IMG/VR virus record: IMGVR_UViG_2875713109_000005
DNA from: a virus
Taxonomy: Duplodnaviria; Heunggongvirae; Uroviricota; Caudoviricetes
Reading direction: 5' to 3' (one strand)
Length of the DNA: 40,475 nucleotides
Positions 14,875 to 40,475 of this stretch are shown piece after piece (within the stretch, counting starts at the first letter, position 1; each line of letters opens with the position of its first letter). A program made the translations under genes and the position numbers. The notes beneath the pieces are model-generated. The model ran no database searches and had not been told where the DNA came from. It saw only the letters and a program-made list of their open reading frames with translations.

Positions 14875-14945
14875 ATCGCTTGACTCCGTACATGAGTACG
14901 GAAGTAAGGTTACGCTATCCAATCCAAATTCAAAAGGGCCAACGT

Positions 14946-15035: not shown

Positions 15036-15068
15036 GGGGTCTGACGCTCAGTGGAACGAAAACTCACG

Positions 15069-18074: not shown

Positions 18075-18795
<721 letters not shown>

Positions 18796-18907
18796 TACGC
18801 CTATTTTTATAGGTTAATGTCATGATAATAATGGTTTCTTAGACGTCAGGTGGCACTTTTCGGGGAAATGTGCGCGGAACCCCTATTTGTTTATTTTTCT
18901 AAATACA

Positions 18908-18936
18908 TTCAAATATGTATCCGCTCATGAGACAAT
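18908..18936 (+). promoter_or_regulatory. bla promoter (P3-type: -35 TTCAAA, -10 GACAAT)
   Basis: TTCAAA at 18908-18913 and GACAAT at 18931-18936 with 17-bp spacing, upstream of the bla start. Confidence 0.55.
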
Positions 18937-18965
18937 AACCCTGGTAAATGCTTCAATAATATTGA

Positions 18966-19838
<873 letters not shown>

Positions 19839-19985
19839 CTGTCAGACCAAGTTTACTCATATATACTTTAGATTGATTTAAAACTTCATTTTTAATTTAA
19901 AAGGATCTAGGTGAAGATCCTTTTTGATAATCTCATGACCAAAATCCCTTAACGTGAGTTTTCGTTCCACTGAGCGTCAGACCCC

Positions 19986-20602
19986 CTGAACAATGTGACG
20001 GACTCAGAAGCCTTCCCGGGTCTTATCCGGCAGACTCACAGAAAAATCAGGGCAGCATCGGCAGATGGCGCTTACGACACCCGGCTCTGTCACGATGAAC
20101 TGCGGCGTAAGAAAATCAGCGCCCTTATCCCACCCCGAAAAGGTGCGGGTTACTGGCCCGGTGAATATGCAGACCGTAACCGTGCAGTGGCTAATCAGCG
20201 AATGACCGGGAGTAATGCGCGGTGGAAATGGACAACAGATTACAACCGTCGCTCGATAGCGGAAACGGCGATGTACCGGGTGGGTTACTGGCCCGGTGAA
20301 TATGCAGACCGTAACCGTGCAGTGGCTAATCAGCGAATGACCGGGAGTAATGCGCGGTGGAAATGGACAACAGATTACAACCGTCGCTCGATAGCGGAAA
20401 CGGCGATGTACCGGGTAAAACAGCTGTTCGGAGGTTCACTGACACTGCGTGACTACGATGGTCAGGTTGCAGAGGCTATGGCCCTGGTACGAGCGCTGAA
20501 CAAAATGACGAAAGCAGGTATGCCTGAAAGCGTGCGTATTGCCTGAAAACACAACCCGCTACGGGGGAGACTTACCCGAAATCTGATTTATTCAACAAAG
20601 CC
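19986..20602 (+). mobile_element. IS903 3' fragment with terminal repeat, containing a 135-bp internal tandem duplication
   Basis: Starts inside the transposase gene directly after the Tn3 repeat and ends with the IS903 terminal repeat at 20602. Segment 20148-20282 is repeated at 20283-20417. Confidence 0.8.
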
Positions 20603-23175: not shown

Positions 23176-23177
23176 GA

Positions 23178-25352
23178 TTACGCCCAGTAGTTCACAACGC
23201 CATCATTCGATTCAGCCGTTTTAACCAAACGCTCTACCGATTTGGTGCAAGAAAACTCCGCCGTTATCTCTGCTTGATTATCCAACAGCGACTCAAGGCG
23301 AGGCAAGAATACACGGCTAACAAGCTCAGCTTTACTGTAATCGCCTACTTGCTTATCACCATCAAATGTGAATTTTGGTAGCACCTTATGAACGATAAAG
23401 TTGTTGATGGCCAGAGACTTATTGTCGTTTACATCGCTAAACAAACTTACGTAGTTAAGCCCCTGTCGAATGGTACGCATACCAAACTCCACGCCAAGCG
23501 GATCAAAGACATCTCGGTTTAAGGTCGTAAACAACTCGCAGAATTCATTCGTACGTTCAAATTTCGGATAAGGGGTACGCTCACCAAGCTCTTCAATATC
23601 AAACACTAGCGGTAAAGTAACGTCGTCTAGCCCGTAAGAGTCAATCTCATCAAAAATCGCATCCCAGTCGGTCAGCAAAGGACTCTTAAACTTCATCACA
23701 TGCGCGCGGTCAAGAATTTTTGGTGAGAGGTAATGGGTTGTTTCGTCGATGTTGATAGCACCAATAATTCTTACGTTCGCTGGAATCGTGATTGACGAAG
23801 GCGTGCCGAGAACACCTGCCAACATGCGTCTGATATCACCGTGGTATTTAATCAGTGAGTCTTTATCGCTAAAGCCAAACGCGCGCTTCATTTCAGCGTT
23901 AATTTCTTCATCTTGCATGAGCGCAACGAAGTCCACGATGCCATTTTTGCTGAACTTTTCTTGCGCGTTAGAAATGACAGAAACAACCCCTTTTAGCTCG
24001 GCAAGAACGTGTGCAGCTTCATCATCCGAGTAAAGTTGAATGGTCGGTTGCTCGTTACGCTCCTCTAGCTTAGAAAGAAAGTCGGCAAAGTAATATTCCA
24101 CTCGGGCAAGGTTCATTTCGTCTAAACAGATGAAGTATGGGATATCTGGGTTTTGCTTAGCCTCGATCAATGCCTCAAGAAATGGTGTCACCAAATATTT
24201 CTTCTCTAGGGGATTGTAATAACCCAGCAAATCTTCTGAACTAGTCCAGTTAGGCTTGACCGGAATGATCTTCGATACCCCACCAATAGCCTTGGCAAAC
24301 GACTGAACCAGGTTTGTTTTGCCTGAGCCTGAGTCCCCCGCCAGAATGATGAGATCATGGGTGCGAATAAGCGTTAGGAAGTTCTCGATAATATGGCGCG
24401 GGTACAAGATATCTCGTTCTTTTAGGTGCGCTTGAATGTATGAAACGGCATCACTGTAGTTAGAATCAAAAGCTTGCGAAAAAGAGATATGCTCGTCACG
24501 ATCCTTATTAGACAAGGTGCTTCCAACAAAAAGGTCAAAATCGTCATCATCCAAAAACTCAAAGCTTTTTAGGAATCCAGCCTTACTTTCGACATAAGCT
24601 TTTAAGCGTTCAATTTTTTTAGACATTGTTTCTTCTGCCTTCTTTTGCAATGCGATTTTGTGTTGCCATTCAGAGTGTTCAACTTCCAGCTTTTGGGCTT
24701 TCGCAATTGCCTGAGAGAGAACGTTATTTTTTTGATTTAGGTCATCTTGGACATGTTGAAGCTGATCTTTATATGACGATATCTGAGCCTTCAATGAGGA
24801 TTCTTCGCGCTCAAATTCTGCGTTAAGTGCAGTCACTTCGCTGTCAATTCTTGATTGAACGTTCTGTAAATGCTGCTTGTAAACAGCTTCATCAAGGAAG
24901 ATGTTTTCATCACCTTTGATGATGTCATTCGCCGTATATTCAGGAAGTTTGATAAGTCGACGGACTGAACTTACTACCACATTGCATTCGAACGGGTTTT
25001 CATGTTTTTCGCGTTCAGATTGAGGCGCTAAAGCAAGCTCGCATGAGACAAAACTCCCATCTTCCAAGCCAAATAACTCTTCGACACTTTTGAAGGAAAC
25101 AAAAACACCTTTGTCCATCGTCAAACGAACATTAATGGGATATTCAGTATCCAGTCCCGTTTGGAGGGATTTAATCTCTAAAAGACGGGTTGGGAGCTTT
25201 CTGCTATCGGAATCTGGGCCATTTAGAATCTTGCCCCAAACTGCCAGTTTTCCATTCGTAATCCCCCAACTCTCACAAAGGCATTGATAAAGCTCTTCAT
25301 CAGAGAACCCTTTAACCTCTTCAAGATTGTAGATAACTTGTTCTAAGGCCAT
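23178..25352 (-). CDS. P-loop AAA+ NTPase, McrB/AAA_5-like, with N-terminal domain and coiled coil (724 aa)
   Basis: Walker A LAGDSGSGKT (338-346), Walker B FICLDEMNLA (407-416) with the DE-x-N pattern of AAA_5/McrB proteins, sensor-like RIIGAINIDETT (528-539). Heptad-rich region about 165-255. Confidence 0.8.
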   Translation of the reverse strand: MALEQVIYNLEEVKGFSDEELYQCLCESWGITNGKLAVWGKILNGPDSDSRKLPTRLLEIKSLQTGLDTEYPINVRLTMDKGVFVSFKSVEELFGLEDGSFVSCELALAPQSEREKHENPFECNVVVSSVRRLIKLPEYTANDIIKGDENIFLDEAVYKQHLQNVQSRIDSEVTALNAEFEREESSLKAQISSYKDQLQHVQDDLNQKNNVLSQAIAKAQKLEVEHSEWQHKIALQKKAEETMSKKIERLKAYVESKAGFLKSFEFLDDDDFDLFVGSTLSNKDRDEHISFSQAFDSNYSDAVSYIQAHLKERDILYPRHIIENFLTLIRTHDLIILAGDSGSGKTNLVQSFAKAIGGVSKIIPVKPNWTSSEDLLGYYNPLEKKYLVTPFLEALIEAKQNPDIPYFICLDEMNLARVEYYFADFLSKLEERNEQPTIQLYSDDEAAHVLAELKGVVSVISNAQEKFSKNGIVDFVALMQDEEINAEMKRAFGFSDKDSLIKYHGDIRRMLAGVLGTPSSITIPANVRIIGAINIDETTHYLSPKILDRAHVMKFKSPLLTDWDAIFDEIDSYGLDDVTLPLVFDIEELGERTPYPKFERTNEFCELFTTLNRDVFDPLGVEFGMRTIRQGLNYVSLFSDVNDNKSLAINNFIVHKVLPKFTFDGDKQVGDYSKAELVSRVFLPRLESLLDNQAEITAEFSCTKSVERLVKTAESNDGVVNYWA

Positions 25353-25599
25353 GATTTCTATTCAAAAAATAAATAAAGGGATTACCTAAGTGTTGCAAAC
25401 TCAACACATCTACATCTAGAGAAAAACAGGTTTAGCTTTGCTTCTTATCTAGCATTTTTTAGCGAGATAATCGCCAACGAGCATTTCAATAAATTCTTTA
25501 AGCTCCTGATATTAAACACCATAAGTCTAATATGGCAACAGTTTCTATAATCGCGTTTCGCGAATCCGTGTGACCTGCCCCCAGGATTAGATACAACCG

Positions 25600-26433
25600 T
25601 CAGTTAGTAAGGTCGGTTTGTTTACCTTCACATTTTCCATTTCGCCACCGTGCTGCAAACTCTGATGGCGTCTGATAATTCAGTGCTGAATGTGGACGAC
25701 ACTCGTTATAATCCTGCCGCCAGTCATTAATGATTTTCCTTGCGTGAACGATATCGCTGAACCAGTGCTCATTCAGGCATTCATCGCGAAATCGTCCGTT
25801 AAAGCTCTCAATAAATCCGTTCTGCGTTGGCTTGCCCGGCTGGATTAAGCGCAACTCAACACCATGCTCAAAGGCCCATTGATCCAGTGCACGGCAAGTG
25901 AACTCCGGCCCCTGGTCAGTTCTTATCGTCGCCGGATAGCCTCGAAACAGTGCAATGCTGTCCAGAATACGCGAGACCTGAACGCCTGAAATCCCAAAGG
26001 CAACAGTGACCGTCAGGCATTCCTTTGTGAAATCATCGACGCAGGTAAGACACTTGATCCTGCGACCGGTGGAAAGTGCGTCCATGACGAAATCCATCGA
26101 CCAGGTCAGATTGGGCGCCGCCGGACGGAGCAGCGGCAGACGTTCTGTTGCCAGCCCTTTACGACGTCTTCTGCGTTTTACGCCCAGGCCACTGAGGTGA
26201 TAAAGCCGGTACACGCGCTTATGATTAACATGAAGCCCTTCACGGCGCAGCAATTGCCAAATACGACGGTAGCCAAAACGCCTGCGCTCCAGTGCCAGCT
26301 CAGTGATGCGCCCTGATAAATGCGCATCAGCAGCCGGACGGTGAGCCTCATAGCGGCAGGTCGACAGGGACAAACCTGTAAGCCTGCAGGCACGACGTTG
26401 CGACAGACCGGTCGCATCACACATCAGCATCAC
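25600..26433 (-). CDS. IS3-family transposase OrfB (DDE/rve integrase domain), probably expressed as an OrfAB frameshift fusion
   Basis: Contains LTWSMDFV...[10 protein letters not shown]...[14 protein letters not shown] integrase-core residues. Overlaps the orfA frame. Confidence 0.8.
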
Positions 26434-26456
26434 GGCTTCCCGCTTCTGGTCTGTCG

Positions 26457-26720
26457 TCAGTACTTTCGCCCAAGAGCCACCTGAAGCGCCTCTTTATCCA
26501 GCATGGCTTCGGCAAGCAGCTTCTTGAGTCTGGCGTTCTCTTCCTCAAGCGACTTCAGGCGCTTAACTTCAGGCACCTCCATACCGCCATACTTCTTACG
26601 CCAGGTGTAAAACGTGGCATCGGAAATGGCATGCTTGCGGCAGAGTTCACGGGCGGGTACCCCAGCTTCGGCTTCGCGGAGAATACTGATGATCTGTTCG
26701 TCGGAAAAACGCTTCTTCAT
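26457..26720 (-). CDS. IS3-family transposase OrfA (HTH plus leucine zipper)
   Basis: 87 aa [46 protein letters not shown]... typical IS3-family OrfA, close to IS407-group OrfA as recalled. Confidence 0.8.
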
Positions 26721-26797
26721 GGGGATGTCCTCATGTGGCTTATGAAGACATTACTAACATCGGGGTGTACTAATCAACGGGGAGCAGGTCATAGTCT

Positions 26798-26873
26798 ATG
26801 GGCACACCACGTTTTACCCCTGAATTTAAGGAAGAAGCTGTCCGCCAAATCACCGAGCGGGGCTATTCCATCT
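26798..26873 (+). pseudogene. Possible 5' remnant of another IS3-family orfA, truncated by IS903
   Basis: Encodes MGTPRFTPEFKEEAVRQITERGYSI, resembling IS3-family OrfA N-termini. Cut off by the IS903 terminal repeat at 26874. Confidence 0.35.
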
Positions 26874-28260
26874 GGCTTTGTTGAATAAATCAGATTTCGG
26901 GTAAGTCTCCCCCGTAGCGGGTTGTGTTTTCAGGCAATACGCACGCTTTCAGGCATACCTGCTTTCGTCATTTTGTTCAGCGCTCGTACCAGGGCCATAG
27001 CCTCCGCAACCTGACCATCGTTACCCGGTACATCGCCGTTTCCGCTATCGAGCGACGGTTGTAATCTGTTGTCCATTTCCACCGCGCATTACTCCCGGTC
27101 ATTCGCTGATTAGCCACTGCACGGTTACGGTCTGCATATTCACCGGGCCAGTAACCCGCACCTTTTCGGGGAGGGATAAGNGCGCTGATTTTCTTACGCC
27201 GCAGTTCATCGTGACAGAGCCGGGTGTCGTAAGCGCCGTCTGCCGATGCTGCCCTGATTTTTCTGTGAGTCTGCCGGATAAGACCCGGGAAGGCTTCTGA
27301 GTCCGTCACATTGTTCAGCGACAGGTCTGCACAGATGATTTCATGTGTGTTGCTGTCAACTGCCAGATGCAACTTTCGCCATATACGACGGCGTTCCTGG
27401 CCATGCTTTTTGACTTTCCACTCGCCTTCACCAAAGACCTTCAGCCCGGTGGAATCAATCACCAGATGCGCGATTTCACCCCGGGTGAACGTTTTGAAAC
27501 TGACGTTAACCGACTTTGCCCGCCTGCTGACACAGCTGTAATCCGGGCANGATGATTTCATGTGTGTTGCTGTCAACTGCCAGATGCAACTTTCGCCATA
27601 TACGACGGCGTTCCTGGCCATGCTTTTTGACTTTCCACTCGCCTTCACCAAAGACCTTCAGCCCGGTGGAATCAATCACCAGATGCGCGATTTCACCCCG
27701 GGTGAACGTTTTGAAACTGACGTTAACCGACTTTGCCCGCCTGCTGACACAGCTGTAATCCGGGCAGCGNANCGGAACNTTCATCAGNGNAAAAATGGAA
27801 TCAATAAAGCCCTGCGCAGCGCGCAGGGTCAGCCTGAATACGCGTTTAATGACCAGCACAGTCGTGATGGCAAGGTCAGAATAGCGCTGGGGCCTTCCCC
27901 GTGATGAAGGCGTTGCCGACTCATACCAGGCCTGAATCGCCCCATCATCCAGCCAGAAAGTGAGGGAGCCACGGTTGATGAGAGCTTTGTTGTAGGTGGA
28001 CCAGTTGGTGATTCTGAACTTTTGCTTTGCCACGGAATGGTCTGTGTTGTCGGGAGGATGCGTGATCTGATCCTTCAACTCAGCAAAAGTTCGATTTATT
28101 NNNNNNNNNNNNNNNNNNNNNCGGTTGATGAGAGCTTTGTTGTAGGTGGACCAGTTGGTGATTCTGAACTTTTGCTTTGCCACGGAATGGTCTGTGTTGT
28201 CGGGAGGATGCGTGATCTGATCCTTCAACTCAGCAAAAGTTCGATTTATTCAACAAAGCC
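26874..28260 (-). mobile_element. IS903 copy, scrambled in this assembly (N runs and exact internal duplications)
   Basis: IS903 terminal repeats at 26874 and (reverse complement) ending 28260. Transposase reading frames present but interrupted by N at 27181, 27550, 27770-27790 and 28101-28121; segments duplicated (27343-27549 = 27560-27767; 27973-28100 = 28122-28250). About 1.39 kb versus about 1.06 kb for IS903. Confidence 0.75.
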
Positions 28261-28742
28261 CCAACCAATTAGCAATTCGCTTTTCGCATGTGCTAAAACA
28301 CCACTCTGGGTGTGCATCATTTAGCAATTCAGCCATTTTGCGTTTGGTCATCCCCCGCCCCTCATACCGTTGCCGAAGGACGCTAATCAATCCTGGATGC
28401 TCTGCCAGCACCTCACTTATGACCCGATCAATACATAACGCCTCTGCATCAGTACAATGCGCCAGCCAGCTCTTTTGCTTACCGTTAATCATATCCCGCA
28501 AAAAAGCCTCAAGTTCAGACTTGTTCAGACCTGCTTTTTTCATCCTCCGGAGCGCCTCGTTAATTGCCGTTTTTGTCAGCTTTTTAGAGGCCAACAACTG
28601 GTTGAACATATTCCCCGTCTTACCGCCGCCAATATACGACCAGCGCCCCCACATGCGCAGTTTTCCCTGAATCCAGACACTTTCCAGCGTGGTGAGACGA
28701 AGGTGTTCCCCGCTTTTGCCTGTATTTGTTGGGTAAATCATA
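28250..28742 (-). CDS. Putative late-gene regulator (antiterminator Q-like by position); 3' end abuts or is altered by IS903
   Basis: 164 aa from MIYPTNTGKSGEH...; start overlaps the upstream stop as ATGA. Lies directly downstream of nin-type genes where lambdoid phages encode Q. Last codons and stop fall in the IS903 terminal repeat. Family not confirmed. Confidence 0.4.
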
Positions 28743-29028
28743 AATAACCTTCCTTTCTCCAGATTTCTTGCGTGCGAAAAACACCTTCTGCATGCATCAG
28801 GCGTAAATCTTCTTTGGTGTAATCGCTTGTTTTTACCCGCCCGTCGATTAAATCGTGGCATGAGCTACAGGCAATCGCCGCCTGCATATCGTGTGGTTTT
28901 GTCGCTGTTCCGCACGTTCCCGCCAGTCGGTAATGCGCCAGCACAGACGTTTCCGGATCGTGATTGCAGTAGCCAAGAATTCTGACGGTGCACATCCGCC
29001 CCCGCGCCGCTTTACGTAAATCCACCAT
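28738..29028 (-). CDS. YbcO-like DUF1364 protein (putative phage nuclease, nin region)
   Basis: 96 aa MVDLRKAARGRMCTVRILGYCNHDPETSVLAHYRL...CSSCHD, cysteine/histidine-rich. Resembles DLP12 YbcO as recalled. Confidence 0.6.
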   Translation of the reverse strand: MVDLRKAARGRMCTVRILGYCNHDPETSVLAHYRLAGTCGTATKPHDMQAAIACSSCHDLIDGRVKTSDYTKEDLRLMHAEGVFRTQEIWRKEGYL

Positions 29029-29627
29029 TACGCAAACTCCAGCAGCTGCGCGGCCACATTTTCGACTTGTTCCGGAGAGGAAAATTTACGGAACAGAATC
29101 CAGTTCCACAGCACATTCAGAACAGATTTATAAACCTGCTGAAACTCGGTTTCGTCCATATTCGCAAAAGCGATAGATTTTGCCCGACGCCCGCGGCTAC
29201 CGTCCGGATAAAAATGTTCGGTGTAAAATCCAGCCTGAATGGTTACCCACTCGCGAAAAGCCTCAAACGACTTTAGCAATGCCGTATCCCGGGTTCTGCG
29301 TGTCGCAACTGTATTCAGATATTGCTCTGCGGCTTCGCTCAGAGCTGGCGTATGTTCCCGGCCTACTGATTCACATAGGTAATCAACGAATCCTGAAACC
29401 AGCTTTCGTTCGCGAGGCGTGATCGCCCCACCGACCGGAGTCCAGTAATCGAATCCCAGTTGCAGGAGTTTGAAAAAACGCTTGTGGAATGCGTAGTTAC
29501 GCACACGCTTAAAGTCTGCGTGTATCCACTCGCCTATTTTGATTTGATGCAAAAAATCGCAACTCTCCGGCGTCGCCGGGAGAAGTAGTCCAGAAGAGGT
29601 TTGTTTGACCAGTTGTATATGCGCCAT
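29028..29627 (-). CDS. Hypothetical nin-region phage protein (199 aa)
   Basis: ORF immediately upstream of and overlapping the YbcO-like gene. No motif recognised with certainty. Confidence 0.5.
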   Translation of the reverse strand: MAHIQLVKQTSSGLLLPATPESCDFLHQIKIGEWIHADFKRVRNYAFHKRFFKLLQLGFDYWTPVGGAITPRERKLVSGFVDYLCESVGREHTPALSEAAEQYLNTVATRRTRDTALLKSFEAFREWVTIQAGFYTEHFYPDGSRGRRAKSIAFANMDETEFQQVYKSVLNVLWNWILFRKFSSPEQVENVAAQLLEFA

Positions 29628-29905
29628 TTCTCAATCTCTCGATGGCGCAGTGCAGCAGATGCCAGTTGTTCAGGCTGACGAATAAAGTATAAATAAACTG
29701 GCTATGGTGTAAAGCTCCACATAACATGAACAAACACTACATATCAAATAGCTGATACAAGGATAGAAATACAACACTTATTATTAAAAACGATTAGATA
29801 AATTACATTTTAATGTTATGAAAAAGTTCTTTTTTATCATAACATTTCAACAAAAGCATTACAGATGCACATCCCGTCATCATCAATTATTTAAGGTGGT
29901 TAAAC

Positions 29906-29992
29906 ATGGAAAATAACAACTATGCACATCTCGCTCCTTTTTTATCCGTAATCCTTTTCGCTGGCTGTTTTATATGGGCATTATTTTTATAA
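29906..29992 (+). CDS. Possible small hydrophobic peptide (28 aa)
   Basis: AAGGTGG RBS-like sequence 8 nt upstream of the ATG. Encodes MENNNYAHLAPFLSVILFAGCFIWALFL (one TM helix). Within a long AT-rich intergenic stretch. Confidence 0.2.
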   Translation: MENNNYAHLAPFLSVILFAGCFIWALFL

Positions 29993-30494
29993 AGTAGCCG
30001 CATGATTAGTTTCTGGAATCATGTTTCCCACTCAAATCATTAACATTTGATAAGATATATCTAAAAGGATGCCTTTACATTATTTGATGCGTATATGATT
30101 TATTTATATGCACAGTAAAGGCATCCTGGAAATAATCAAGATTAATGATATATTGCTTATCTCATCCCCCACTGTCTTTCACCCGGAAAACATTTATCGT
30201 TAAAAATATATCATAAGTAATTAAATTGAAATTTCAGAACACAACTAATGCACACAATAAGATTCAGTAACAGTAATCTATGCGGACTATATCGAGATTT
30301 TTTAGTTAAACTTTAATAAGTTATTCCTAACACACAGAATGCACAAACTAAAAGTAAAACAAATAGTTATACGAAAAACAACCATATTGATTCTATCTTC
30401 TCCTCTAATCAACATATCAATTATGTGTTTCATAACAGCTTGACATAACCCTCAAAAAGGTGCATTTATAATGCATGTTTTATGGGAGGTGGTT

Positions 30495-30836
30495 ATGACA
30501 CACAAGAGAATTCCTAAAGACTGGGTAATCAAACGCTCAACTCCGTTCTTCACAAAAGAGAACGTACCTTCAGCGTTATTAACACATCATAATACAGCAG
30601 CAGGTGTTTTTGGACAGTTATGCGTGATGGAAGGTACTGTAACATATTATGGTTTTGCTGATGAGAATGCTACTGAACCGGAGATAAAAGTAGTCATTAA
30701 TGCTGGCGCTTTTGCAACAAGCCCACCACAATACTGGCACCGTGTTGAACTAAGCGATGATGCTCAGTTTAATATTAACTTTTGGGTAGCTCCAGACTTC
30801 TCAGGCGAAAAAGTCTATACCGCAAAAAAAGAATAG
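30495..30836 (+). CDS. YeaR-like DUF1971 protein (TehB-related domain)
   Basis: 113 aa from MTHKRIPKDWVIKRSTPFFTKENVP... with GGAGGTGG RBS. Resembles E. coli YeaR as recalled (RSTPF..., ...YYGFADENATEPE..., ...FNINFWVAP). Confidence 0.65.
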   Translation: MTHKRIPKDWVIKRSTPFFTKENVPSALLTHHNTAAGVFGQLCVMEGTVTYYGFADENATEPEIKVVINAGAFATSPPQYWHRVELSDDAQFNINFWVAPDFSGEKVYTAKKE

Positions 30837-30918
30837 CCACGCTATAAATATCTTATTAACTAGTCCCGGCGTGGTTCTTTCCCCGCTGGGTCTTTTACTC
30901 AGATTAGTAGTCTACGAA

Positions 30919-31044
30919 TCAGAGCCTCCGTCTGCCAGTTCGGATTCGTACCTCGCAGAGGTCTTTCCTCGTTACCAGTGCCGTCACTATGACGGTTAAA
31001 CAGATGACGATCAGGGCGATTAACATCGCCTTTTGCTGCTTCAT
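30919..31044 (-). CDS. Hok/Gef-family type I toxin with altered C-terminus (41 aa as encoded)
   Basis: MKQQKAMLIALIVICLTVIVTALVTRKDLCEVRIRTG matches the HokD/RelF-type N-terminus and TM helix by recall, then reads RRRL-stop instead of QTEVAVFTAYEPEE. Overlapping mok-like frame upstream. Confidence 0.55.
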   Translation of the reverse strand: MKQQKAMLIALIVICLTVIVTALVTRKDLCEVRIRTGRRRL

Positions 31045-31566
31045 AGCCTGCTTCTCCTTGACCTTTCGGTCCGTAAGAGGCTAATCTCTATGTGTCGCAT
31101 AGATATGGCCTCAGATTAATGTTAAACGTCTTGCAGGACGCGTAATGTTAACTGGGGCTTTTCTCTATCTACCTTTGGTGTTCATGCCCGAGGCAGATAG
31201 CCTCAAGCACCCACAGCAATTCTAACTATCCAATACATCACTGCCAACACTTTAAACTCTTACCCTTTAAAACAAGAACAAAATTCAACCAATCAGCATT
31301 GGGCGTATACTCATATCCTAGAGAAAACAACTCTTTCTGTACCATTTATATCCATATGATTTATAAGCATTTGCCACTTGCCATAGCCGCACAATGACAG
31401 TTTGCCATTTGATGTCAATAGATAAAAATGATCGTTTTCAATGAGTTACATACTTGCAAGGCGTTGCACATCAGGCCCGATTACGTCAGTATCAAAAGAT
31501 TACAGATGGTGCATTACTGCCACCTCGCCTTAATGTTCCAGAACTCTCCAACTTGAGGAATTTTCA

Positions 31567-32340
31567 ATGACATCCTTTCAATTATCTTTGATTTCTCGTG
31601 AAATTGACGGCGAAATAATACATTTACGTGCCAAAGATGGTTACATAAACGCCACATCAATGTGTAGAACTGCGGGCAAACTGCTCTCTGATTACACTAG
31701 ACTCAAAACTACTCAAGAGTTTTTTGACGAATTATCACGCGATATGGGAATTCCCATATCGGAGTTAATTCAATCATTTAAAGGTGGAAGACCTGAAAAC
31801 CAAGGGACATGGGTGCATCCTGACATCGCTATTAATCTAGCGCAGTGGCTATCGCCCAAATTTGCAGTCCAGGTTTCAAGATGGGTTCGTGAATGGATGT
31901 CAGGGGAAAGAACTACAGCAGAAATGCCTGTACATTTAAAACGGTACATGGTTAATCGTAGTAGAATTCCTCACACGCACTTTTCTATTCTTAATGAACT
32001 GACATTCAACTTGGTTGCACCTCTTGAACAAGCAGGGTACACACTCCCAGAAAAAATGGTTCCTGACATTTCACAAGGAAGAGTATTTTCACAATGGTTA
32101 AGAGATAATAGAAACGTAGAACCCAAAACATTCCCTACCTATGACCATGAATATCCCGATGGTCGCGTATACCCTGCAAGGCTGTACCCAAATGAATATT
32201 TAGCAGATTTCAAAGAACATTTTAACAATGTTTGGTTGCCGCAATATGCCCCGAAATACTTCGCTGACCGGGACAAAAAGGCTCTCGCCTTGATTGAAAA
32301 AATTATGCTACCTAACCTCGATGGCAATGAACAGTTCTAA
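31567..32340 (+). CDS. KilA-N domain protein
   Basis: N-terminal region (IDGEIIHLRAKDGYINATSMCRTAGKLLSDYTRLKTTQEF) has the KilA-N/APSES-type signature common in lambdoid prophages. Confidence 0.65.
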   Translation: MTSFQLSLISREIDGEIIHLRAKDGYINATSMCRTAGKLLSDYTRLKTTQEFFDELSRDMGIPISELIQSFKGGRPENQGTWVHPDIAINLAQWLSPKFAVQVSRWVREWMSGERTTAEMPVHLKRYMVNRSRIPHTHFSILNELTFNLVAPLEQAGYTLPEKMVPDISQGRVFSQWLRDNRNVEPKTFPTYDHEYPDGRVYPARLYPNEYLADFKEHFNNVWLPQYAPKYFADRDKKALALIEKIMLPNLDGNEQF

Positions 32341-32460
32341 ATGATTAGCCAGCCCCATAAGGGCTGGTTATTTAGTATTATCAACCCCAGCGGCAAATCG
32401 AATACACCACCAGCGCCACCGCCATCGCAATTCCTACCGTTGTGAATGCTTCAGGCCAGG

Positions 32461-32964
32461 TCATCGTAAAACATCCTCCACGCTTATAAGTCCGCTTCGC
32501 TCCAGGTAGTCCATCACTTTATCCGGCAATTTGCAGCCCGGTTTCGCTTTCTTCAGTTGACTAACCAATTGTTTAACCAGCATTGTCAATTCGCGAACTT
32601 GTTTCCCGGGCTCCCCTTTGCCCTGAAGCAGGGCAGCGCGGCAAGCGTTCCATCCCTCAGCATATGTTTCAGTTACACCATCGAGATGGCATGTAAGCAA
32701 ATCCATTTCTTCCGGCACTACGGGCGCTGGAAAAACGGCATAGGGTGGCGTCCATTTTGGCGCTTTATCTCCAGCCGAACGCTGATACCAGTCATCCGGT
32801 TTGTATTCATAAAAATCACCAACTGGCTCTGCTTCCAGCGATGCCAGAGCAATTTTGAATAATTCGCCCTCTACCCGTGCCATCCCTGAATTGGGGTGGC
32901 ATTTCTCAATCGCTATTTTTAATTTAGCTTCTTCGATTAATTGCTTTTTGGTTAATTCAGTCAT
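32461..32964 (-). CDS. Hypothetical phage protein (167 aa)
   Basis: ORF in the early-right region; no motif recognised. Confidence 0.5.
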   Translation of the reverse strand: MTELTKKQLIEEAKLKIAIEKCHPNSGMARVEGELFKIALASLEAEPVGDFYEYKPDDWYQRSAGDKAPKWTPPYAVFPAPVVPEEMDLLTCHLDGVTETYAEGWNACRAALLQGKGEPGKQVRELTMLVKQLVSQLKKAKPGCKLPDKVMDYLERSGLISVEDVLR

Positions 32965-33126
32965 TTTTCATTACCGCCCTTTCGGGCCGCCTCCTAATAT
33001 TTTGAGGGTGCAGCCCCCCCCCTCCGGTTAAGGATTAAATTTTATTTACAGTGCTAAATTTAATTATTCAGATTTGGATTATGATTTCTCTTTCAGTTCA
33101 CGCAGTTCCCTGATTGTTAATTTGGC

Positions 33127-33564
33127 TCACAACAGCACATCCTGAAAATTACCCTGATAGAACGCCAGTACACGCTGCATGACTTCGCTCTTCCGGCACT
33201 CGCGACAGATTATATTCAGACGCCTGTCATAGCGGCGTATTTCTCCGTCTGGTAATGACCAGATAAGGTCCGGATCAACTACAGCAGGTTTCTTCACCTT
33301 TGCCCTCGATAGTTTTTTGCGGGCGTTTTGCCAGTCTTTACGCGCCTGTTCAGACGGGAATAACCCGTAACCAGAGTTGTATACATCGCCACTGGCAACC
33401 AGCTCACTGGCGAGAACACTCATCAGATATCTTGTCGCACCTGTCTTGGCTTCCAGTTGCCGTAACGTCTCGCGACCGCTCAGACGTACAAGTTCAACAA
33501 CCTGCCCTTTAATTTTTTCCCGCTCTTCTGGTGTAAATACTTTTGCCATAGGTGCCTCCGGCAA
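33127..33564 (-). CDS. Hypothetical phage protein (145 aa; start may be the Met 5 codons in)
   Basis: Basic protein with C-terminal CxxC (ICRECRK); abuts the upstream gene stop. Confidence 0.5.
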   Translation of the reverse strand: MPEAPMAKVFTPEEREKIKGQVVELVRLSGRETLRQLEAKTGATRYLMSVLASELVASGDVYNSGYGLFPSEQARKDWQNARKKLSRAKVKKPAVVDPDLIWSLPDGEIRRYDRRLNIICRECRKSEVMQRVLAFYQGNFQDVLL

Positions 33565-34359
33565 TCACTTTTCCGATGCAACATGGCGGGAAGAATCAGT
33601 AATCTGTCGTACAATATCCCTGTGCTTGTTCAACTCACGCAGCGCGGCGCAGACACACTCCCACTTCTGGACATGATTTTTCGCCCGACGCAGTTCGCGG
33701 TTTGCCATATGCAGTGATGGTAAAACCAGGTCATCCGCTCGCGTTTCAGTAAACGATGGCAGCGACTGCACAATGTCCGCCACAGTTTCTGTTTTAATAT
33801 CTTCCTGTGTTGCAGCCTCCTGTACTGGTAACGCAACACCTGCGGTCTGAGGAAAGGCCTTACCATCAGTTTCCGCTACCGATGCTGCTTTCGGCTCTGC
33901 TGGTAAATTATCGCCCGGTATGCAGTAACGAAATTTACCGCCCTGATTTACGCGAATCAGACGACCTTTGCTGATTGCCATTGCCAGCGTTGAAGCCACT
34001 TTGCGTGATGTGGTACCAAACAATGTAGCCAGCTCATCAGCCGTTTGTGGTCCGCGTTGTTCAATCGTCGCGGTTAAATCGCACTCTGAGATTTTCGCTA
34101 CTGTTGCTGTGGTGGTTTCTTCCAGCAGTTCTACCTGCGCTGGCTGTTCCTGCTGAACGTTGTTATCAGCCACACGCCAGGTGTACGCGCTTTTATCAAC
34201 ACAACCAGCCTTTTTCAGTTCCCATAGTTCGTTCAGCACTTCTTCACGACTGATATCAAGTCGAGCAGCAAGTTCTATGGATGTGGCTTTTCCCATTGCT
34301 TTCAGTGCGTCAAAAACAGTCTCCATTAAATTTTTCTCCCGGTAAAAATTACTTCGCAA
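33565..34359 (-). CDS. Hypothetical phage replication-region protein with N-terminal winged-helix-like segment (264 aa; alternative start at 34326)
   Basis: N-terminus [43 protein letters not shown] looks like a wHTH. Overlaps the stop of the DnaC-like gene. Confidence 0.5.
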
Positions 34360-34828
34360 TTCCTAGCTGGACGACATTCGGACGCCAGCTCTCCCAGTTA
34401 AAATTCACCCATCGCCCGCCGTTCATGGTCATGCGATCCATAATCCGCTCGCCGAGCAATGTTTTCATGGCCTCATAGTTCAGGTTTGTCAGCATCCCCA
34501 CGCTGCGCATCGAAGCTGTCCGGCGATCAACAATCTGGTGCAGTACCACCTGCTCGTTTTTCGTCTCGCGCTGAATGCCAATTTCATCAAGAACCAGCAG
34601 ATCCACTTCGCACAGTTCCCGCAAAAATTTTTCGCCTGACTGCCCGTCGTCATAGCTGGCGTGCAGGGCACTCATAACATCAGCCACGGTAACCACAATC
34701 ACTGTCTGACCGTCTTTCAGCAGGCGATTCCCGATAGCTGCCGCTAAGTGGTTCTTCCCGGTAGCCATTGCTGATTGCCCACCGACAACAGCACAAGCTT
34801 GCTTGAATGAATAGTTCTCTTTTTTCAT
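34349..34828 (-). CDS. DnaC/IstB-like helicase-loader ATPase, N-terminally short (159 aa)
   Basis: Walker A-like [18 protein letters not shown], Walker B LLVLDEIG, and HQIVDRR...[23 protein letters not shown] resembling the DnaC C-terminal half. The expected N-terminal domain of about 70 aa is absent. Confidence 0.6.
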
Positions 34829-34857
34829 CGAATGAACTCCAAAAACACACAGAAATA

Positions 34858-34925
34858 TTAGGCGACGCCTAACGCAATTGTCAATAGGCTGTGCCTAATG
34901 CGGTAAGGGTAGGGATTGCCTAATG
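34858..34925. promoter_or_regulatory. Operator-like region with TTAGGC/GCCTAA half-site repeats, left of the repressor gene
   Basis: 15-bp perfect palindrome TTAGGCGACGCCTAA (34858-34872), ATTGTCAATAGGCTGTGCCTAATG (34877-34900) and TTGCCTAATG (34916-34925), in the 123-bp divergent intergenic region. Confidence 0.5.
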
Positions 34926-34951
34926 TAATGCGCATAGGAGAATATTAAGCA

Positions 34952-35428
34952 ATGCTTAGTGGTAAAGACTTAGGCCGAGCGATAGAGCAGGCCATTAACA
35001 AAAAAATCGCATCGGGATCCGTCAAATCAAAGGCGGAGGTCGCACGCCACTTCAAAGTCCAACCACCATCAATTTATGACTGGATTAAGAAAGGCTCTAT
35101 AAGTAAAGATAAACTTCCAGAATTATGGCGTTTCTTTTCTGATGTTGTTGGTCCAGAGCATTGGGGGCTTAACGAATACCCCATACCAACCCCCACCAAT
35201 TCAGATACAAAAAGTGAACTTTTAGATATAAACAACCTTTATCAAGCAGCCTCTGATGAAATAAGAGCGATTGTAGCTTTCCTGTTATCTGGAAATGCTA
35301 CAGAACCAGATTGGGTTGACCACGATGTTCGCGCCTACATAGCAGCGATGGAAATGAAAGTGGGTAAGTATCTGAAAGCTCTAGAATCTGAACGGAAAAG
35401 CCAGAACATCACAAAAACTGGAACTTAA
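34952..35428 (+). CDS. racR: Prophage repressor, RacR-like (HTH)
   Basis: 158 aa; N-terminal HTH (GRAIEQAINKKIASGSVKSKAEVARHFKVQPPSIYDWIKKG). Same length and position (divergent from the replication genes) as Rac RacR as recalled. Confidence 0.7.
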   Translation: MLSGKDLGRAIEQAINKKIASGSVKSKAEVARHFKVQPPSIYDWIKKGSISKDKLPELWRFFSDVVGPEHWGLNEYPIPTPTNSDTKSELLDINNLYQAASDEIRAIVAFLLSGNATEPDWVDHDVRAYIAAMEMKVGKYLKALESERKSQNITKTGT

Positions 35429-35505
35429 ACTTATATGGTCTGACGGAAAACTCCTGGATTCCGTTATTTAACCCCCCCATCACTTTCTGCTGTCGCCATC
35501 ACCTA

Positions 35506-35560
35506 TTAGGTTACGCTCAAAACATTAGGCATAGCCTATTGACAATCAATTAGGCATTAC
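35506..35560. promoter_or_regulatory. Second operator-like region, inverted copy of the left site
   Basis: CATTAGGCATAGCCTATTGACAAT (35523-35546) is the reverse complement of 34877-34900 at 23 of 24 positions. Additional ATTAGG half-sites at 35506-35515 and 35550-35556. Confidence 0.5.
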
Positions 35561-35736
35561 CTATAGTTCCAGCATACCACCCACCCCGCCCCACAGAACG
35601 CCGGGCAATACTTCGAGTTACCAGGCAGTGGTAAGGGGTTAAGTAGCCAGCCCGAGGCGTATGAACATGACGGCGGGATTCAAATTTTGCAGTGCAGCAG
35701 TTAGTTCCGCCACCCGGCGTTAAGGGGAGAGATAAG

Positions 35737-35871
35737 ATGGTGCATTACGAAGTAGTTCAGTATTTGATGGATTGTTGCGGTATCACTTACAACCAGGCTG
35801 TGCAGGCTTTACGCAGCAACGCCTGGGATCTCTGGCAGGCAGAAGTCGCTATACGTAGCAACAAGATGTGA
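35737..35871 (+). CDS. ydaG: Small Rac-type protein (44 aa), YdaG-like
   Basis: AAGGGGAG RBS before the ATG. Encodes MVHYEVVQYLMDCCGITYNQAVQALRSNAWDLWQAEVAIRSNKM. Size and position match Rac ydaG as recalled. Below the ORF-track length cutoff. Confidence 0.5.
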   Translation: MVHYEVVQYLMDCCGITYNQAVQALRSNAWDLWQAEVAIRSNKM

Positions 35872-35881
35872 GATTCGCAAA

Positions 35882-36037
35882 ATGCAAAAAATCGACCTCG
35901 GCAACAACGAATCCCTGGTGTGCGGCGTGTTCCCCAACCAGGATGGAACGTTCACTGCCATGACGTATACCAAAAGCAAAACATTTAAAACCGAAACTGG
36001 TGCGCGCCGATGGTTGGAGAAGCACACAGTAAGCTAA
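35882..36037 (+). CDS. ydaF: Small Rac-type protein (51 aa), YdaF-like
   Basis: Encodes MQKIDLGNNESLVCGVFPNQDGTFTAMTYTKSKTFKTETGARRWLEKHTVS. Convergent with sieB. Size and position match Rac ydaF as recalled. Confidence 0.5.
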   Translation: MQKIDLGNNESLVCGVFPNQDGTFTAMTYTKSKTFKTETGARRWLEKHTVS

Positions 36038-36522
36038 CGATTAAAACGTCTACTCCTGCTGTTCCAGAATAACTTCATAAAATGGGAGTATTTTTCGGTG
36101 ACGAGATAATAAGAACAGTTTGCGCTATCACTCTGATGTTGAATGATGCCCTTCCGTTCTAATTTTTTCATAACCGGGTTACGGCAAGGAGAAGTGATAA
36201 TAAGATTTCCTGTTTTAAGGAAATCTTTAAATACAGCGATTTCTTTCTCAGATAAACGAAGCAATACTCGTTGCTCTGGTAGTAATGAATAATGCTTTTG
36301 AATATGTGCTCGCAATCTTGAGAAGGAAATGGCGACCACGAAAGAAAAGGCAAAAACGATAATCTGAAAGAGCCAAGGTATTTCAGTATAAGCATTGAAT
36401 GCGACAGTAAACTCTTTCGGTATCAGCCAGAGAGTGAGACCAAAAATGATAATCGTATACATAAGTCTTTCGAGTGGCTCGTTAGCAAAAAGTTTCAACA
36501 ATGGAGTAAATACATCCAACAT
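36034..36522 (-). CDS. sieB: Superinfection exclusion protein SieB
   Basis: 162 aa from the internal Met (MLDVFTPLLKLFANEPLERLMYTIIIFGLTLWLIPKEF...), membrane protein. Size and position match Rac SieB as recalled. Confidence 0.75.
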   Translation of the reverse strand: MLDVFTPLLKLFANEPLERLMYTIIIFGLTLWLIPKEFTVAFNAYTEIPWLFQIIVFAFSFVVAISFSRLRAHIQKHYSLLPEQRVLLRLSEKEIAVFKDFLKTGNLIITSPCRNPVMKKLERKGIIQHQSDSANCSYYLVTEKYSHFMKLFWNSRSRRFNR

Positions 36523-36962
36523 ATCAATAACTCTCAACTGTAAGGGTATTGAAATGTTAACACAAGCTCTCGCTGTAGGGGTATAGCCGAGACCACCGAA
36601 GCCCGGAGGTGGTGAAATAAAACCGGGCACAACACGAAGGCGCATTTCCGATATCCATAAAGAGTCGGTCTTGTCTGTTAAATTTAAATGGTGGGAGTGC
36701 GCCTCCGGTTGTAAATAACGACATTGCTGTGTGTAGTCCTGGCGGCATCAGTTTTTTCTTGAAGTTCGGCTGATGTCCGCCCTTTTTTAAGTGAATTTTG
36801 TGATGCGGTGAATGCGGCTAAGCGCACGTGGCACAGTTAAAAGTCATGTTAGTCCTTATTGGTTTGGGTGGGAAAGCCGACTGTAATTGTTAACTGGTTG
36901 CAGTCACCTGGAGGCACCAGGCACCGCATCAACAAAGTTCATTTGTAAAAATGGAGATAATT

Positions 36963-37184
36963 ATGATTGCACATCACTTCGGAACTGATGAAATACCACG
37001 TCAGTGTGTGACTCCTGGCGATTATGTTCTTCATGAAGGCCGGACATATATTGCCTCGGCAAACAATATTAAAAAGCGAAAACTATATATTCGTAACCTG
37101 ACCACAAAAACATGCATTACTGACCGCATGATTAAAGTCTTCCTCGGTCGTGATGGTTTACCTGTAAAGGCGGAGTCATGGTGA
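36963..37184 (+). CDS. kilR: Prophage killing protein KilR (FtsZ inhibitor)
   Basis: 73 aa [46 protein letters not shown]...; first gene of the leftward early operon analogue. Recognised from memory. Confidence 0.7.
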
Positions 37185-37354
37185 TGACTAAGAAAATAAA
37201 ATGTGCTTACCACCTTTGCAAAAAAGACGTTGAAGAAAGCAAAGCTATTGAAAGAATGCTTCACTTCATGCACGGGATTTTATCAAAAGACGAACCGAGA
37301 AAATATTGCAGTGAATCTTGTGCCGAAAAAGACCAGATGGCACATGAACTTTAA
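37184..37354 (+). CDS. ydaE: YdaE-like small cysteine-rich protein (56 aa)
   Basis: [56 protein letters not shown]. Start overlaps the kilR stop (TGATG). Below the ORF-track cutoff. Confidence 0.6.
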   Translation: MTKKIKCAYHLCKKDVEESKAIERMLHFMHGILSKDEPRKYCSESCAEKDQMAHEL

Positions 37355-37428
37355 TTAATTGACTATTCGAAACTGAATTTATGCCAGAAATGGCAGGTAT
37401 TCGCTCAACCTTAATTAAGGAGAAAAAC

Positions 37429-37704
37429 ATGATTACCAATTATGAAGCCACTGTTGTAACTACCGATGACATTGTTCACGAGGTGAATCTGGAAGGAAAG
37501 CGCATTGGCTACGTAATTAAAACAGAAAATAAAGAAACCCCATTCACTGTGGTTGATATCGATGGTCCATCAGGCAACGTAAAAACACTTGATGAAGGTG
37601 TCAAAAAAATGTGCCTGGTGCATATCGGAAAGAATCTGCCCGCAGAAAAAAAAGCCGAATTTCTGGCAACTCTAATTGCAATGAAATTAAAAGGTGAAAT
37701 CTGA
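37429..37704 (+). CDS. racC: RacC-like protein
   Basis: 91 aa from MITNYEATVVTTDDIVHEVNLEGKRIGYVIK...; size and position match Rac racC as recalled. Confidence 0.7.
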   Translation: MITNYEATVVTTDDIVHEVNLEGKRIGYVIKTENKETPFTVVDIDGPSGNVKTLDEGVKKMCLVHIGKNLPAEKKAEFLATLIAMKLKGEI

Positions 37705-37805
37705 AAGAAATAGCCTGCGTATGGCGCAGGCTATGAACAGTGTGTATCCGGCAAGATCATTCACTGAACAAAACGAATTTTAATCTGAGTTGAGGTTAAA
37801 AAACA

Positions 37806-38249
37806 ATGAGCACAAAACCACTCTTCCTGTTACGGAAAGCGAAAAAATCATCCGGTGAACCTGACGTCGTCCTGTGGGCAAGCAACGATTTTGAATCGAC
37901 CTGTGCCACTCTGGACTACCTGATCGTTAAGTCAGGTAAAAAACTGAGCAGCTATTTTAAAGCTGTTGCCACGAATTTTCCTGTCGTTAATGACCTGCCC
38001 GCTGAAGGTGAGATCGATTTTACCTGGAGTGAACGCTATCAACTCAGCAAAGACTCCATGACATGGGAACTAAAACCGGGAGCAGCACCAGACAACGCTC
38101 ACTATCAAGGCAATACCAACGTCAACGGCGAAGACATGACTGAGATTGAGGAGAATATGCTACTCCCAATTTCTGGCCAGGAACTGCCCATTCGTTGGCT
38201 TGCTCAACACGGCAGCGAAAAGACGGAGGTACTCAGTTTGAAGTTATGA
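37806..38249 (+). pseudogene. recE: recE 5' remnant (exonuclease VIII N-terminal about 140 codons), deletion-truncated
   Basis: [46 protein letters not shown]... matches the RecE N-terminus as recalled, but the ORF stops after 147 codons. The full-length gene encodes 866 aa. Confidence 0.7.
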
Positions 38250-38491
38250 CGCGCAAACAGATTGAGCTGGTGCGCAGCCTGAGTAAAGCTGGTAATAACG
38301 GGCCGTGGGTAACTCACTGGGAAGAAATGGCAAAGAAAACGGCTATTCGTCGCCTGTTCAAATATCTGCCCGTATCAATTGAGATCCAGCGTGCAGTATC
38401 AATGGATGAAAAGGAACCACTGACAATCGATCCTGCAGATTCCTCTGTATTAACCGGGGAATACAGTGTAATCGATAATTCAGAGGAATAA
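38195..38491 (+). pseudogene. recT: recT 3' remnant (C-terminal about 85 codons)
   Basis: ...[88 protein letters not shown] matches the RecT C-terminus as recalled, in a different frame from the recE remnant. Junction near 38220-38230. Confidence 0.7.
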
Positions 38492-38547
38492 TTCAGCCTG
38501 GCGGTGTAATGCACCGCCAACTTGAAATATTTTTTATGAGAAAAATT

Positions 38548-38742
38548 ATGAGATATGACAATGTTAAACCATGTCCATTTTGTGGTTGTCCATCAGTAAC
38601 GGTGAAAGCCATTTCAGGATATTACCGAGCGAAGTGTAACGGATGCGAATCCCGAACCGGTTATGGTGGAAGTGAAAAAGAAGCACTCGAAAGATGGAAT
38701 AAACGAACCACTGGAAATAATAATGGAGGTGTTCATGTATAA
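38548..38742 (+). CDS. lar: Restriction alleviation protein Lar
   Basis: 64 aa MRYDNVKPCPFCGCPSVTVKAISGYYRAKCNGCESRTGYGGSEKEALERWNKR... with zinc-ribbon cysteines. Recognised from memory. Confidence 0.7.
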   Translation: MRYDNVKPCPFCGCPSVTVKAISGYYRAKCNGCESRTGYGGSEKEALERWNKRTTGNNNGGVHV

Positions 38743-38944
38743 AATTACCGCCACTATTGAAAAGGAAGGTGGCACTCCTACTAACTGGACAAGATATTCA
38801 AAATCTAAACTAACGAAATCAGAATGCGAAAAAATGCTCTCAGGTAAAAAAGAAGCAGGCGTTTCCAGAGAGCAGAAAGTAAAACTGATAAATTTTAATT
38901 GCGAGAAACTTCAGTCCTCGAGAATTGCATTGTATTCAAATTAA
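38735..38944 (+). CDS. ydaC: YdaC-like protein (69 aa)
   Basis: MYKITATIEKEGGTPTNWTRYSKSKLTKSECEKMLSGKKEAGVSREQKVKLINFNCEKL...; overlaps the lar 3' end. Size and position as in Rac. Confidence 0.65.
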   Translation: MYKITATIEKEGGTPTNWTRYSKSKLTKSECEKMLSGKKEAGVSREQKVKLINFNCEKLQSSRIALYSN

Positions 38945-39022
38945 AACTTCATAGCTGATTATTAATAATCAACATCGGGCGTCAATTTCAGTCTAACATT
39001 GGCGCCTGCCAGAGGTGATGCG

Positions 39023-39238
39023 ATGGCACAAGTAATCTTTAATGAAGAGTGGATGGTTGAATACGGCCTGATGCTTCGCACTGGTCTGGGGGCCAGACAA
39101 ATTGAAGCATACCGCCAGAACTGTTGGGTGGAGGGCTTCCACTTCAAACGAGTATCTCCTTTAGGTAAGCCAGACAGCAAACGAGGGATTATCTGGTACA
39201 ACTATCCAAAGATAAATCAGTTTATCAAAGACTCATGA
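39023..39238 (+). CDS. xisR: Excisionase-like protein (Xis/YdaQ-type)
   Basis: 71 aa [44 protein letters not shown]...; immediately upstream of the integrase. Confidence 0.7.
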
Positions 39239-39239
39239 T

Positions 39240-40475
39240 ATGTCTAAATTACCAACAGGTGTCGAGATTAGAGGTAGATACATTCGCATCTGGTTCATGT
39301 TTCGAGGAAAACGATGTCGGGAAACATTAAAAGGCTGGGAGATTACAAACAGTAATATTAAAAAGGCCGGAAATTTAAGAGCGCTGATAGTTCATGAAAT
39401 AAACTCCGGTGAATTTGAGTATTTAAGACGTTTTCCCCAGTCCAGCACTGGGGCAAAAATGGTGACAACGAGAGTCATAAAAACGTTCGGAGAGCTTTGT
39501 GATATCTGGACAAAAATTAAAGAGACAGAGTTAACAACAAACACAATGAAGAAAACGAAATCACAATTAAAAACACTCAGAATAATAATTTGTGAAAGTA
39601 CCCCGATATCACATATTCGTTATAGCGATATCTTAAACTACCGGAATGAACTGCTGCATGGAGAAACGCTTTACCTGGATAATCCAAGATCCAACAAAAA
39701 AGGAAGAACCGTGCGCACAGTTGATAACTATATCGCCCTGCTCTGTTCGCTGTTGCGTTTTGCGTATCAGTCGGGATTTATATCAACCAAACCATTTGAA
39801 GGAGTAAAAAAATTACAGCGAAACAGAATAAAGCCTGATCCGTTATCTAAAACAGAATTCAATGCATTAATGGAAAGTGAAAAAGGACAGAGCCAGAACT
39901 TGTGGAAATTTGCCGTTTACTCAGGACTTCGTCACGGGGAACTGGCAGCTCTGGCGTGGGAGGATGTGGATCTCGAAAAGGGAATAGTGAATGTCAGAAG
40001 AAACCTGACGATACTTGATATGTTCGGTCCCCCAAAAACAAATGCCGGGATCCGAACAGTAACACTACTGCAGCCTGCTCTTGAAGCACTGAAGGAGCAA
40101 TACAAACTGACCGGGCATCATCGCAAAAGCGAAATCACCTTTTATCATCGGGAGTACGGCAGAACCGAAAAGCAAAAACTGCATTTTGTTTTCATGCCCA
40201 GGGTGTGTAACGGAAAACAAAAACCTTATTACTCGGTAAGCAGTTTGGGGGCAAGGTGGAATGCAGCAGTAAAACGTGCTGGTATTCGCCGCCGTAATCC
40301 GTACCATACGCGGCATACTTTTGCCTGCTGGCTGTTGACGGCAGGAGCGAACCCGGCATTTATAGCCAGCCAAATGGGGCATGAAACTGCGCAGATGGTG
40401 TATGAAATTTACGGTATGTGGATTGATGACATGAACGACGAACAGATAGCCATGTTGAATGCGCGGTTATCGTAG
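39240..40475 (+). CDS. intR: Tyrosine site-specific integrase, Rac IntR-like
   Basis: 411 aa; C-terminal catalytic region with R...HTRHTF...Y motifs (LRHGELAALAWEDVD, NPYHTRHTFACWLLTAGANP, ...Y). Stop at the window end. Confidence 0.9.
   Translation: MSKLPTGVEIRGRYIRIWFMFRGKRCRETLKGWEITNSNIKKAGNLRALIVHEINSGEFEYLRRFPQSSTGAKMVTTRVIKTFGELCDIWTKIKETELTTNTMKKTKSQLKTLRIIICESTPISHIRYSDILNYRNELLHGETLYLDNPRSNKKGRTVRTVDNYIALLCSLLRFAYQSGFISTKPFEGVKKLQRNRIKPDPLSKTEFNALMESEKGQSQNLWKFAVYSGLRHGELAALAWEDVDLEKGIVNVRRNLTILDMFGPPKTNAGIRTVTLLQPALEALKEQYKLTGHHRKSEITFYHREYGRTEKQKLHFVFMPRVCNGKQKPYYSVSSLGARWNAAVKRAGIRRRNPYHTRHTFACWLLTAGANPAFIASQMGHETAQMVYEIYGMWIDDMNDEQIAMLNARLS

Follow-up and report, generated by a model that had tools for sequence, protein, structure and literature searches.

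Does the Rac prophage of this strain still carry a usable recET operon? The question is raised by the right end of the window (the whole stretch of DNA analysed, 40,475 nucleotides), where a preliminary description, made from the sequence alone, had placed the first 140 or so codons of recE directly in front of the last 85 or so codons of recT, in a different frame, with the junction near positions 38220 to 38230 and about 3 kb of the module missing, and had concluded that the prophage cannot supply the RecET pathway. Rearrangements of this operon have a long history in K-12, where the classical sbcA-type mutations and deletions activate recET expression; sbcA alleles keep the 3' nuclease-coding part of recE, along with recT, and turn the pathway on. 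The evidence below makes it nearly certain that the recE'-'recT segment of the window is, instead, a loss-of-function remnant of the Rac recET operon that goes back to a single, probably illegitimate, deletion of 2,717 bp.

Rac context and the deletion junction

The genes at the right end of the window come in the order racR-ydaG-ydaF-sieB-kilR-ydaE-racC-[recE'-'recT]-ralR-rcbA-xisR-intR, which is the exact synteny of Rac. Both in the sister genome, that of Escherichia coli PSS-07, and in K-12, Rac is integrated next to ttcA: the ttcA and dbpA genes come directly after intR in PSS-07 and in loci L003 to L005, as they do in K-12. (L003 to L007, the loci fetched for comparison, are the PSS-07 chromosome, assemblies of the public sequencing runs ERR1082499, SRR11871328, and ERR14075237, and one ENA metagenome scaffold.) The gene order, the adjacency to ttcA, and the high identity to K-12 (99.7 to 99.96% over positions 34762 to 40475) are those of the Rac prophage. 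The genes next to the remnant, as well as those between it and the end of the window, are all intact:

37429 to 37704, plus strand: racC, intact, the upstream neighbour (K-12 comparison and PSS-07 annotation)
38548 to 38742, plus strand: ralR (lar), a toxin gene, intact, directly 3' of the remnant (sequence and PSS-07 annotation)
38735 to 38944, plus strand: rcbA, intact, with the region of the K-12 antisense ralA sRNA inside it (PSS-07 annotation)
39023 to 39238, plus strand: xisR, excisionase gene, intact (sequence and PSS-07 annotation)
39240 to 40475, plus strand: intR, integrase gene, intact, its stop codon ending on the last base of the window (translation, K-12 comparison, and PSS-07 annotation)

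In a BLASTN comparison with the Rac prophage of K-12 MG1655, the right end of the window resolves into two collinear blocks, one of which pairs NC_000913.3 positions 1420431-1416971 with window positions 34762-38221 (99.74% identity) and the other NC_000913.3 positions 1414256-1412000 with window positions 38219-40475 (99.96% identity). The 2,717 bp that lie between these blocks in K-12 (NC_000913.3 about 1414257-1416973) are absent from the window. Within the remnant itself (positions 37806-38491), the sole nucleotide difference from K-12 is a synonymous C/T at 38366. The window thus has the same locus, synteny, and sequence as the K-12 recE-recT operon (b1350-b1349), with 416 nt of recE at 100% identity and 273 nt of recT with one synonymous difference, but lacks the 2,717 bp, the nuclease domain, and the N-terminal two-thirds of RecT. 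The deletion endpoints fall in recE codon 139 and recT codon 180, and the recE frame (from 37806) and the recT frame (from 38219) differ in phase, which puts the fusion out of frame. The layout given in the preliminary description therefore holds in all its parts, with 139 codons of recE, 90 codons of recT, and a slightly shorter deletion than had been estimated; the two fragments correspond to RecE residues 1-139 and RecT residues 180-269, at 100% protein identity and in Rac synteny, and their junction was located as follows:

38219 to 38221, plus strand: deletion junction, placed by a three-way alignment with both K-12 sides, that of recE and that of recT

The same K-12 alignment, proposed beforehand as a check that would place the endpoints and reveal any microhomology, did both: the 3 bp at 38219-38221, AAA, are common to the two blocks. 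The three-way alignment contained no filler DNA at the recE'-'recT junction, and no insertion sequence (IS) or repeat was found there; extended imperfectly, as AAAnnCGG, the parental endpoints agree at 6 of 8 positions, and the alignment revealed no longer or hidden endpoint homology beyond AAA plus the CGG two bases downstream. Among 200,000 random endpoint pairs simulated within K-12 recET, a microhomology of at least 3 bp arose by chance in 5.6% (P = 0.056), so the AAA is only marginally above chance expectation and weakly informative on mechanism, which is therefore indistinguishable from blunt illegitimate joining. Since the junction is clean, carries 3 bp of microhomology, and lacks any IS or repeat, it fits RecA-independent illegitimate recombination, and the deletion may well have arisen by a process of this kind, of either the short-homology or the slippage/end-joining type. 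Such an event would have left the flanking genes untouched and brought those beyond it 2.7 kb nearer to the early-left promoter region. The junction illustrates neatly how little homology a naturally occurring E. coli deletion may show at its join.

The two gene fragments and the RecET pathway

The remnant consists of two fragments, which give rise to two overlapping open reading frames (ORFs):

37806 to 38221, plus strand: recE', the first 416 nt of Rac recE, comprising codons 1-138 and two bases of codon 139, 100% identical to NC_000913.3 1417386-1416971
38222 to 38249, plus strand: out-of-frame tail of recE' in recT sequence, TEVLSLKL (8 codons), from the translation
38219 to 38491, plus strand: 'recT, the last 90 codons of recT plus the stop codon (residues 180-269; 273 nt), corresponding to NC_000913.3 1414256-1413984 with one synonymous difference
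38246 to 38491, plus strand: 81-amino-acid (81-aa) ORF starting at RecT Met189 (sequence, and automatic gene calls in loci L003 to L007)

The recE' ORF (37806-38249) ends with the TGA at 38247-38249 and has a predicted product of 147 aa, of which 139, rather than 138, are native residues (K-12 RecE residues 1-139, 100% protein identity) because codon 139 remains a Lys codon (AAA changed to AAG). The only Pfam domain in this product is PF06630 (Exonuc_VIII; E = 2.3e-78), which is itself cut short (profile positions 1-165 of 203). In intact K-12 RecE, PF06630 covers residues 2-178, and the PD-(D/E)XK nuclease domain, PF12684, residues 615-850; the solved structure of the RecE nuclease (PDB 3H4R) corresponds to residues 605-866, none of which survives here. 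The C-terminal nuclease domain that defines RecE (PF12684; 3H4R) is accordingly not present in recE', and a tblastn search with K-12 RecE detected no residues past 139 anywhere in the window. According to a review (PMC11611040), the nuclease domain of RecE comprises residues 564-866 and can replace the full-length protein, and the function of the N-terminal domain is unknown. From its sequence, recE' is a gene fragment orthologous to Rac recE and would not be a functional member of that family.

The 'recT frame is open from 38195 to the stop at 38491 and encodes residues 180-269 with 100% protein identity to K-12 RecT; the native start and the first 179 codons are deleted. What is left of the RecT domain, PF03837, amounts to profile positions 123-187 of 198 (the domain covers residues 53-244 of intact RecT), so that 'recT has neither a complete domain nor its own start codon. 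When intact RecT is compared with the structure of a homologue, 7UB2, the alignment spans residues 15-248, most of which are deleted here.

The deletion thus removed RecE residues 140-866, including the entire nuclease domain, along with RecT residues 1-179, which make up most of the annealase fold, and joined the two stumps out of frame; neither product would be able to carry out exonucleolytic resection or strand annealing. A tblastn search of the window with K-12 RecE and RecT found no second homologue of either gene besides these two fragments. The loss of PF12684, the reduction of PF03837, and the lack of another homologue in the window together indicate that the prophage probably cannot supply RecET, neither exonuclease VIII nor the annealase, in keeping with what the preliminary description had concluded. 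The pathway would be unavailable from the prophage even if the operon were derepressed in the way that sbcA mutations derepress K-12 Rac. The two kinds of change are alike in that both alter the recET operon through the racC-recE region of Rac; however, sbcA alleles retain the nuclease-coding 3' part of recE, together with recT, under an active promoter, whereas the deletion in the window takes away precisely the nuclease-coding end of recE and the beginning of recT, and would thereby abolish the pathway. The Rac prophage of this strain would accordingly offer no route to sbcA-type RecET suppressors and no recET genes to donate to recombining lambdoid phages.

Carriers of the allele and the direction of change

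The allele and its junction are identical in E. coli PSS-07 (NZ_AP027673.1, from human faeces, Ecuador, and nearest to the window among complete genomes), which matches the 901-bp query at 100% identity. The PGAP annotation of PSS-07 lists recE' (AABJ76_RS12565) as [quoted passage not shown] and 'recT (AABJ76_RS12570) as "recombinase RecT, incomplete, missing N-terminus," so both pieces are already pseudogenes in a public RefSeq record, and the deletion is ordinary decay of a cryptic prophage. It fits the generic picture in which internal deletions and IS insertions make prophages decay ("grounding"; e.g., PMC6379469), the common features being a clean internal deletion that shows very little microhomology, the vertical inheritance of the cryptic prophage, and a second, similar deletion (ydaS'-'ydaV, 2 bp of microhomology) in the same element; against that background there is nothing notable about it other than being one specific allele. 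A literature search returned recombineering papers and general reviews of prophage decay, with no description of a natural recET deletion allele.

Unlike PSS-07, the window is a draft assembly, and it carries scaffold gaps (21 Ns at 2298-2318 and at 28101-28121), duplicated contig ends, and scattered single Ns, any of which might suggest that the junction arose during assembly or scaffolding and that the true genome has full-length recET. However, the remnant lies inside an N-free stretch (28122-40475), recE and recT have no common repeat that might collapse, and an identical junction recurs in the PSS-07 chromosome, which is finished, and in four assemblies from separate projects, one of them a metagenome. 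The 101-nt junction string is present without a mismatch in all five fetched loci (L003 to L007), and 14 recorded contigs encode exactly the 147-aa fusion product. Since the junction is identical in independent assemblies, an artefact is excluded for practical purposes, its residual probability being close to nil.

Only one of the 5,426 complete E. coli genomes, PSS-07, spans the junction. The 901-bp query is matched in 2,765 of them, nearly always as two separate places, and in 1,636 a single place holds 80% or more of K-12 recET; other E. coli genomes have IS insertions within recE or recT. The short form of recET is the derived state, because full-length recET is common as against a single carrier of the junction and because each fragment breaks off within a Pfam domain and the two are out of frame. 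The opposite polarity, in which the short form would be ancestral, or an origin by mosaic exchange with another prophage module, could be entertained on the grounds that lambdoid prophages are mosaic and that the "exonuclease" and "3'-5' exonuclease" genes of other E. coli prophages, found in thousands of genomes, share with K-12 recE just nt 306-1772 (approximately residues 102-590), at 85-89% nucleotide identity. These matches of mid-recE suggest that the N-terminal two-thirds of RecE is a mosaic module common to other prophage proteins. In the window, however, the sequence on either side of the junction matches contiguous K-12 Rac at 100% identity, no foreign DNA intervenes, both fragments interrupt Pfam domains out of frame, and the full-length operon is the common state, which together reduce the likelihood of an ancestral or mosaic origin to a negligible level compared with a simple internal deletion.

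A further possibility is that the remnant is alive, i.e., that the lineage retains it as a pair of translationally coupled small genes encoding the 147-aa RecE N-terminal and 81-aa RecT C-terminal proteins, which could, e.g., target RecBCD or SSB or be dominant-negative against incoming phage recombinases. In its more specific form, the mini-gene pair RecE(1-139)+8 aa/RecT(189-269), with expression driven by the Rac early-left operon, would be kept for a new activity, be it a Gam-like or other function of the RecE N-terminus or a RecT peptide titrating the SSB or exonuclease partners of superinfecting phages. The layout lends itself to such a reading: the ATGA at 38246-38249 overlaps the recE' TGA with the in-frame ATG of RecT Met189, as in coupled genes, both ORFs are called by gene finders, and the allele is present in several isolates with no substitutions inside 37806-38491 in the five loci; moreover, the literature assigns no established function to the RecE N-terminus, and a Gam-like activity has been suggested to reside within recE (PMC13048471). 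However, at 0-1 differences across the 5-kb right flank, the carriers of the junction are close to clonal, which makes the absence of substitutions uninformative on selection. The PF06630 region is itself truncated at profile position 165, the GGAGG at 38225-38229 is 16 nt from the ATG, too distant for a good Shine-Dalgarno sequence, and the allele's single occurrence among the complete genomes does not favour retention either. Nor was the RecE N-terminal segment ever found under an annotated stand-alone small gene in the phage collection: a tblastn search with residues 1-139 matched 28 of 50,697 phage records, whose annotations, the basis of this comparison, pointed to no stand-alone RecE N-terminal gene; among the hits listed, each annotated one fell under a gene named for exodeoxyribonuclease VIII, RecE, or exonuclease, while two of the records had no annotation. 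The 81-aa ORF and the ATGA overlap are most likely incidental by-products of the junction, a living remnant of the general kind is very improbable, and the mini-gene pair with a new activity is just as hard to credit.

Probable later changes in the same prophage

The remnant is not the only scar in this copy of Rac. A second, independent internal deletion, of approximately 1.9 kb, has joined ydaS' to 'ydaV with the loss of ydaT and ydaU:

34762 to 34763: junction of the second Rac deletion (TA, 2-bp microhomology), about 1.9 kb lost

This ydaS'-'ydaV deletion is common to the window and PSS-07, where PGAP annotates partial pseudogenes. Loci L004 and L006 have the recET junction yet retain the K-12-like ydaS-ydaT-ydaU-ydaV arrangement to the left of window position 34762, and the L004-type arrangement accounts for the majority of the places on record. 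L003 and L004 do not differ at all in the 5,080 bp rightward of the recET junction, a stretch that includes ttcA and dbpA. Since some carriers of the recET junction are without the ydaS'-'ydaV deletion, the recET deletion was probably the first and the ydaS-ydaV deletion the second, both within one closely related lineage, as judged from these sequence comparisons. The recET allele is real and heritable and marks a small E. coli lineage with ongoing decay of Rac, in which the ydaS-ydaV deletion and, in the strain of the window, a large IS903-bounded resistance island would represent later steps. Taken together, the recET junction, the later ydaS-ydaV deletion, and the IS903-bounded island could serve as nested lineage markers of stepwise prophage decay.

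The island, by which the window differs from PSS-07, is a plasmid-like composite of approximately 23.5 kb in the late region of Rac (window positions 4729-28260). Its boundaries are inverted IS903-type ends, GGCTTTGTTGAATAAAT, and a 9-bp direct repeat, CCAACCAAT, in the flanks (4720-4728 and 28261-28269). Its cargo includes sitABCD (6043-9492), merR, Tn3 tnpA and tnpR, blaTEM-1 (18978-19838), and copies of IS3 and IS903, and positions 14201-27021 match plasmid pEco_M21170_137 (NZ_CP133921.1) at 100% identity. The exact structure of the island is uncertain because its interior contains Ns.

The two 21-N gaps of the scaffolded draft each lie between duplicated contig ends, of 113 bp (2185-2297 = 2319-2431) and 129 bp (27972-28100 = 28122-28250), respectively, and the apparent tandem duplications at these gaps are assembly artefacts. 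Further Ns, listed as single, are at 5073, 5445, 27181, 27550, and 27770-27790, and there are ambiguous bases in the IS-rich parts.

Two other regions of the island encode proteins outside the cargo listed above. Between the sit operon and the merR/Tn3 genes, a 500-aa ORF (12449-13951, plus strand) has no match in Pfam or PADLOC. On the minus strand, at 20572-25352, an 867-aa protein with a PD-(D/E)XK nuclease domain and a 724-aa AAA_5 ATPase form a pair that matches PDC-M26, a candidate defence system in PADLOC, end to end (components B and A; bit scores 1428 and 1107, respectively).
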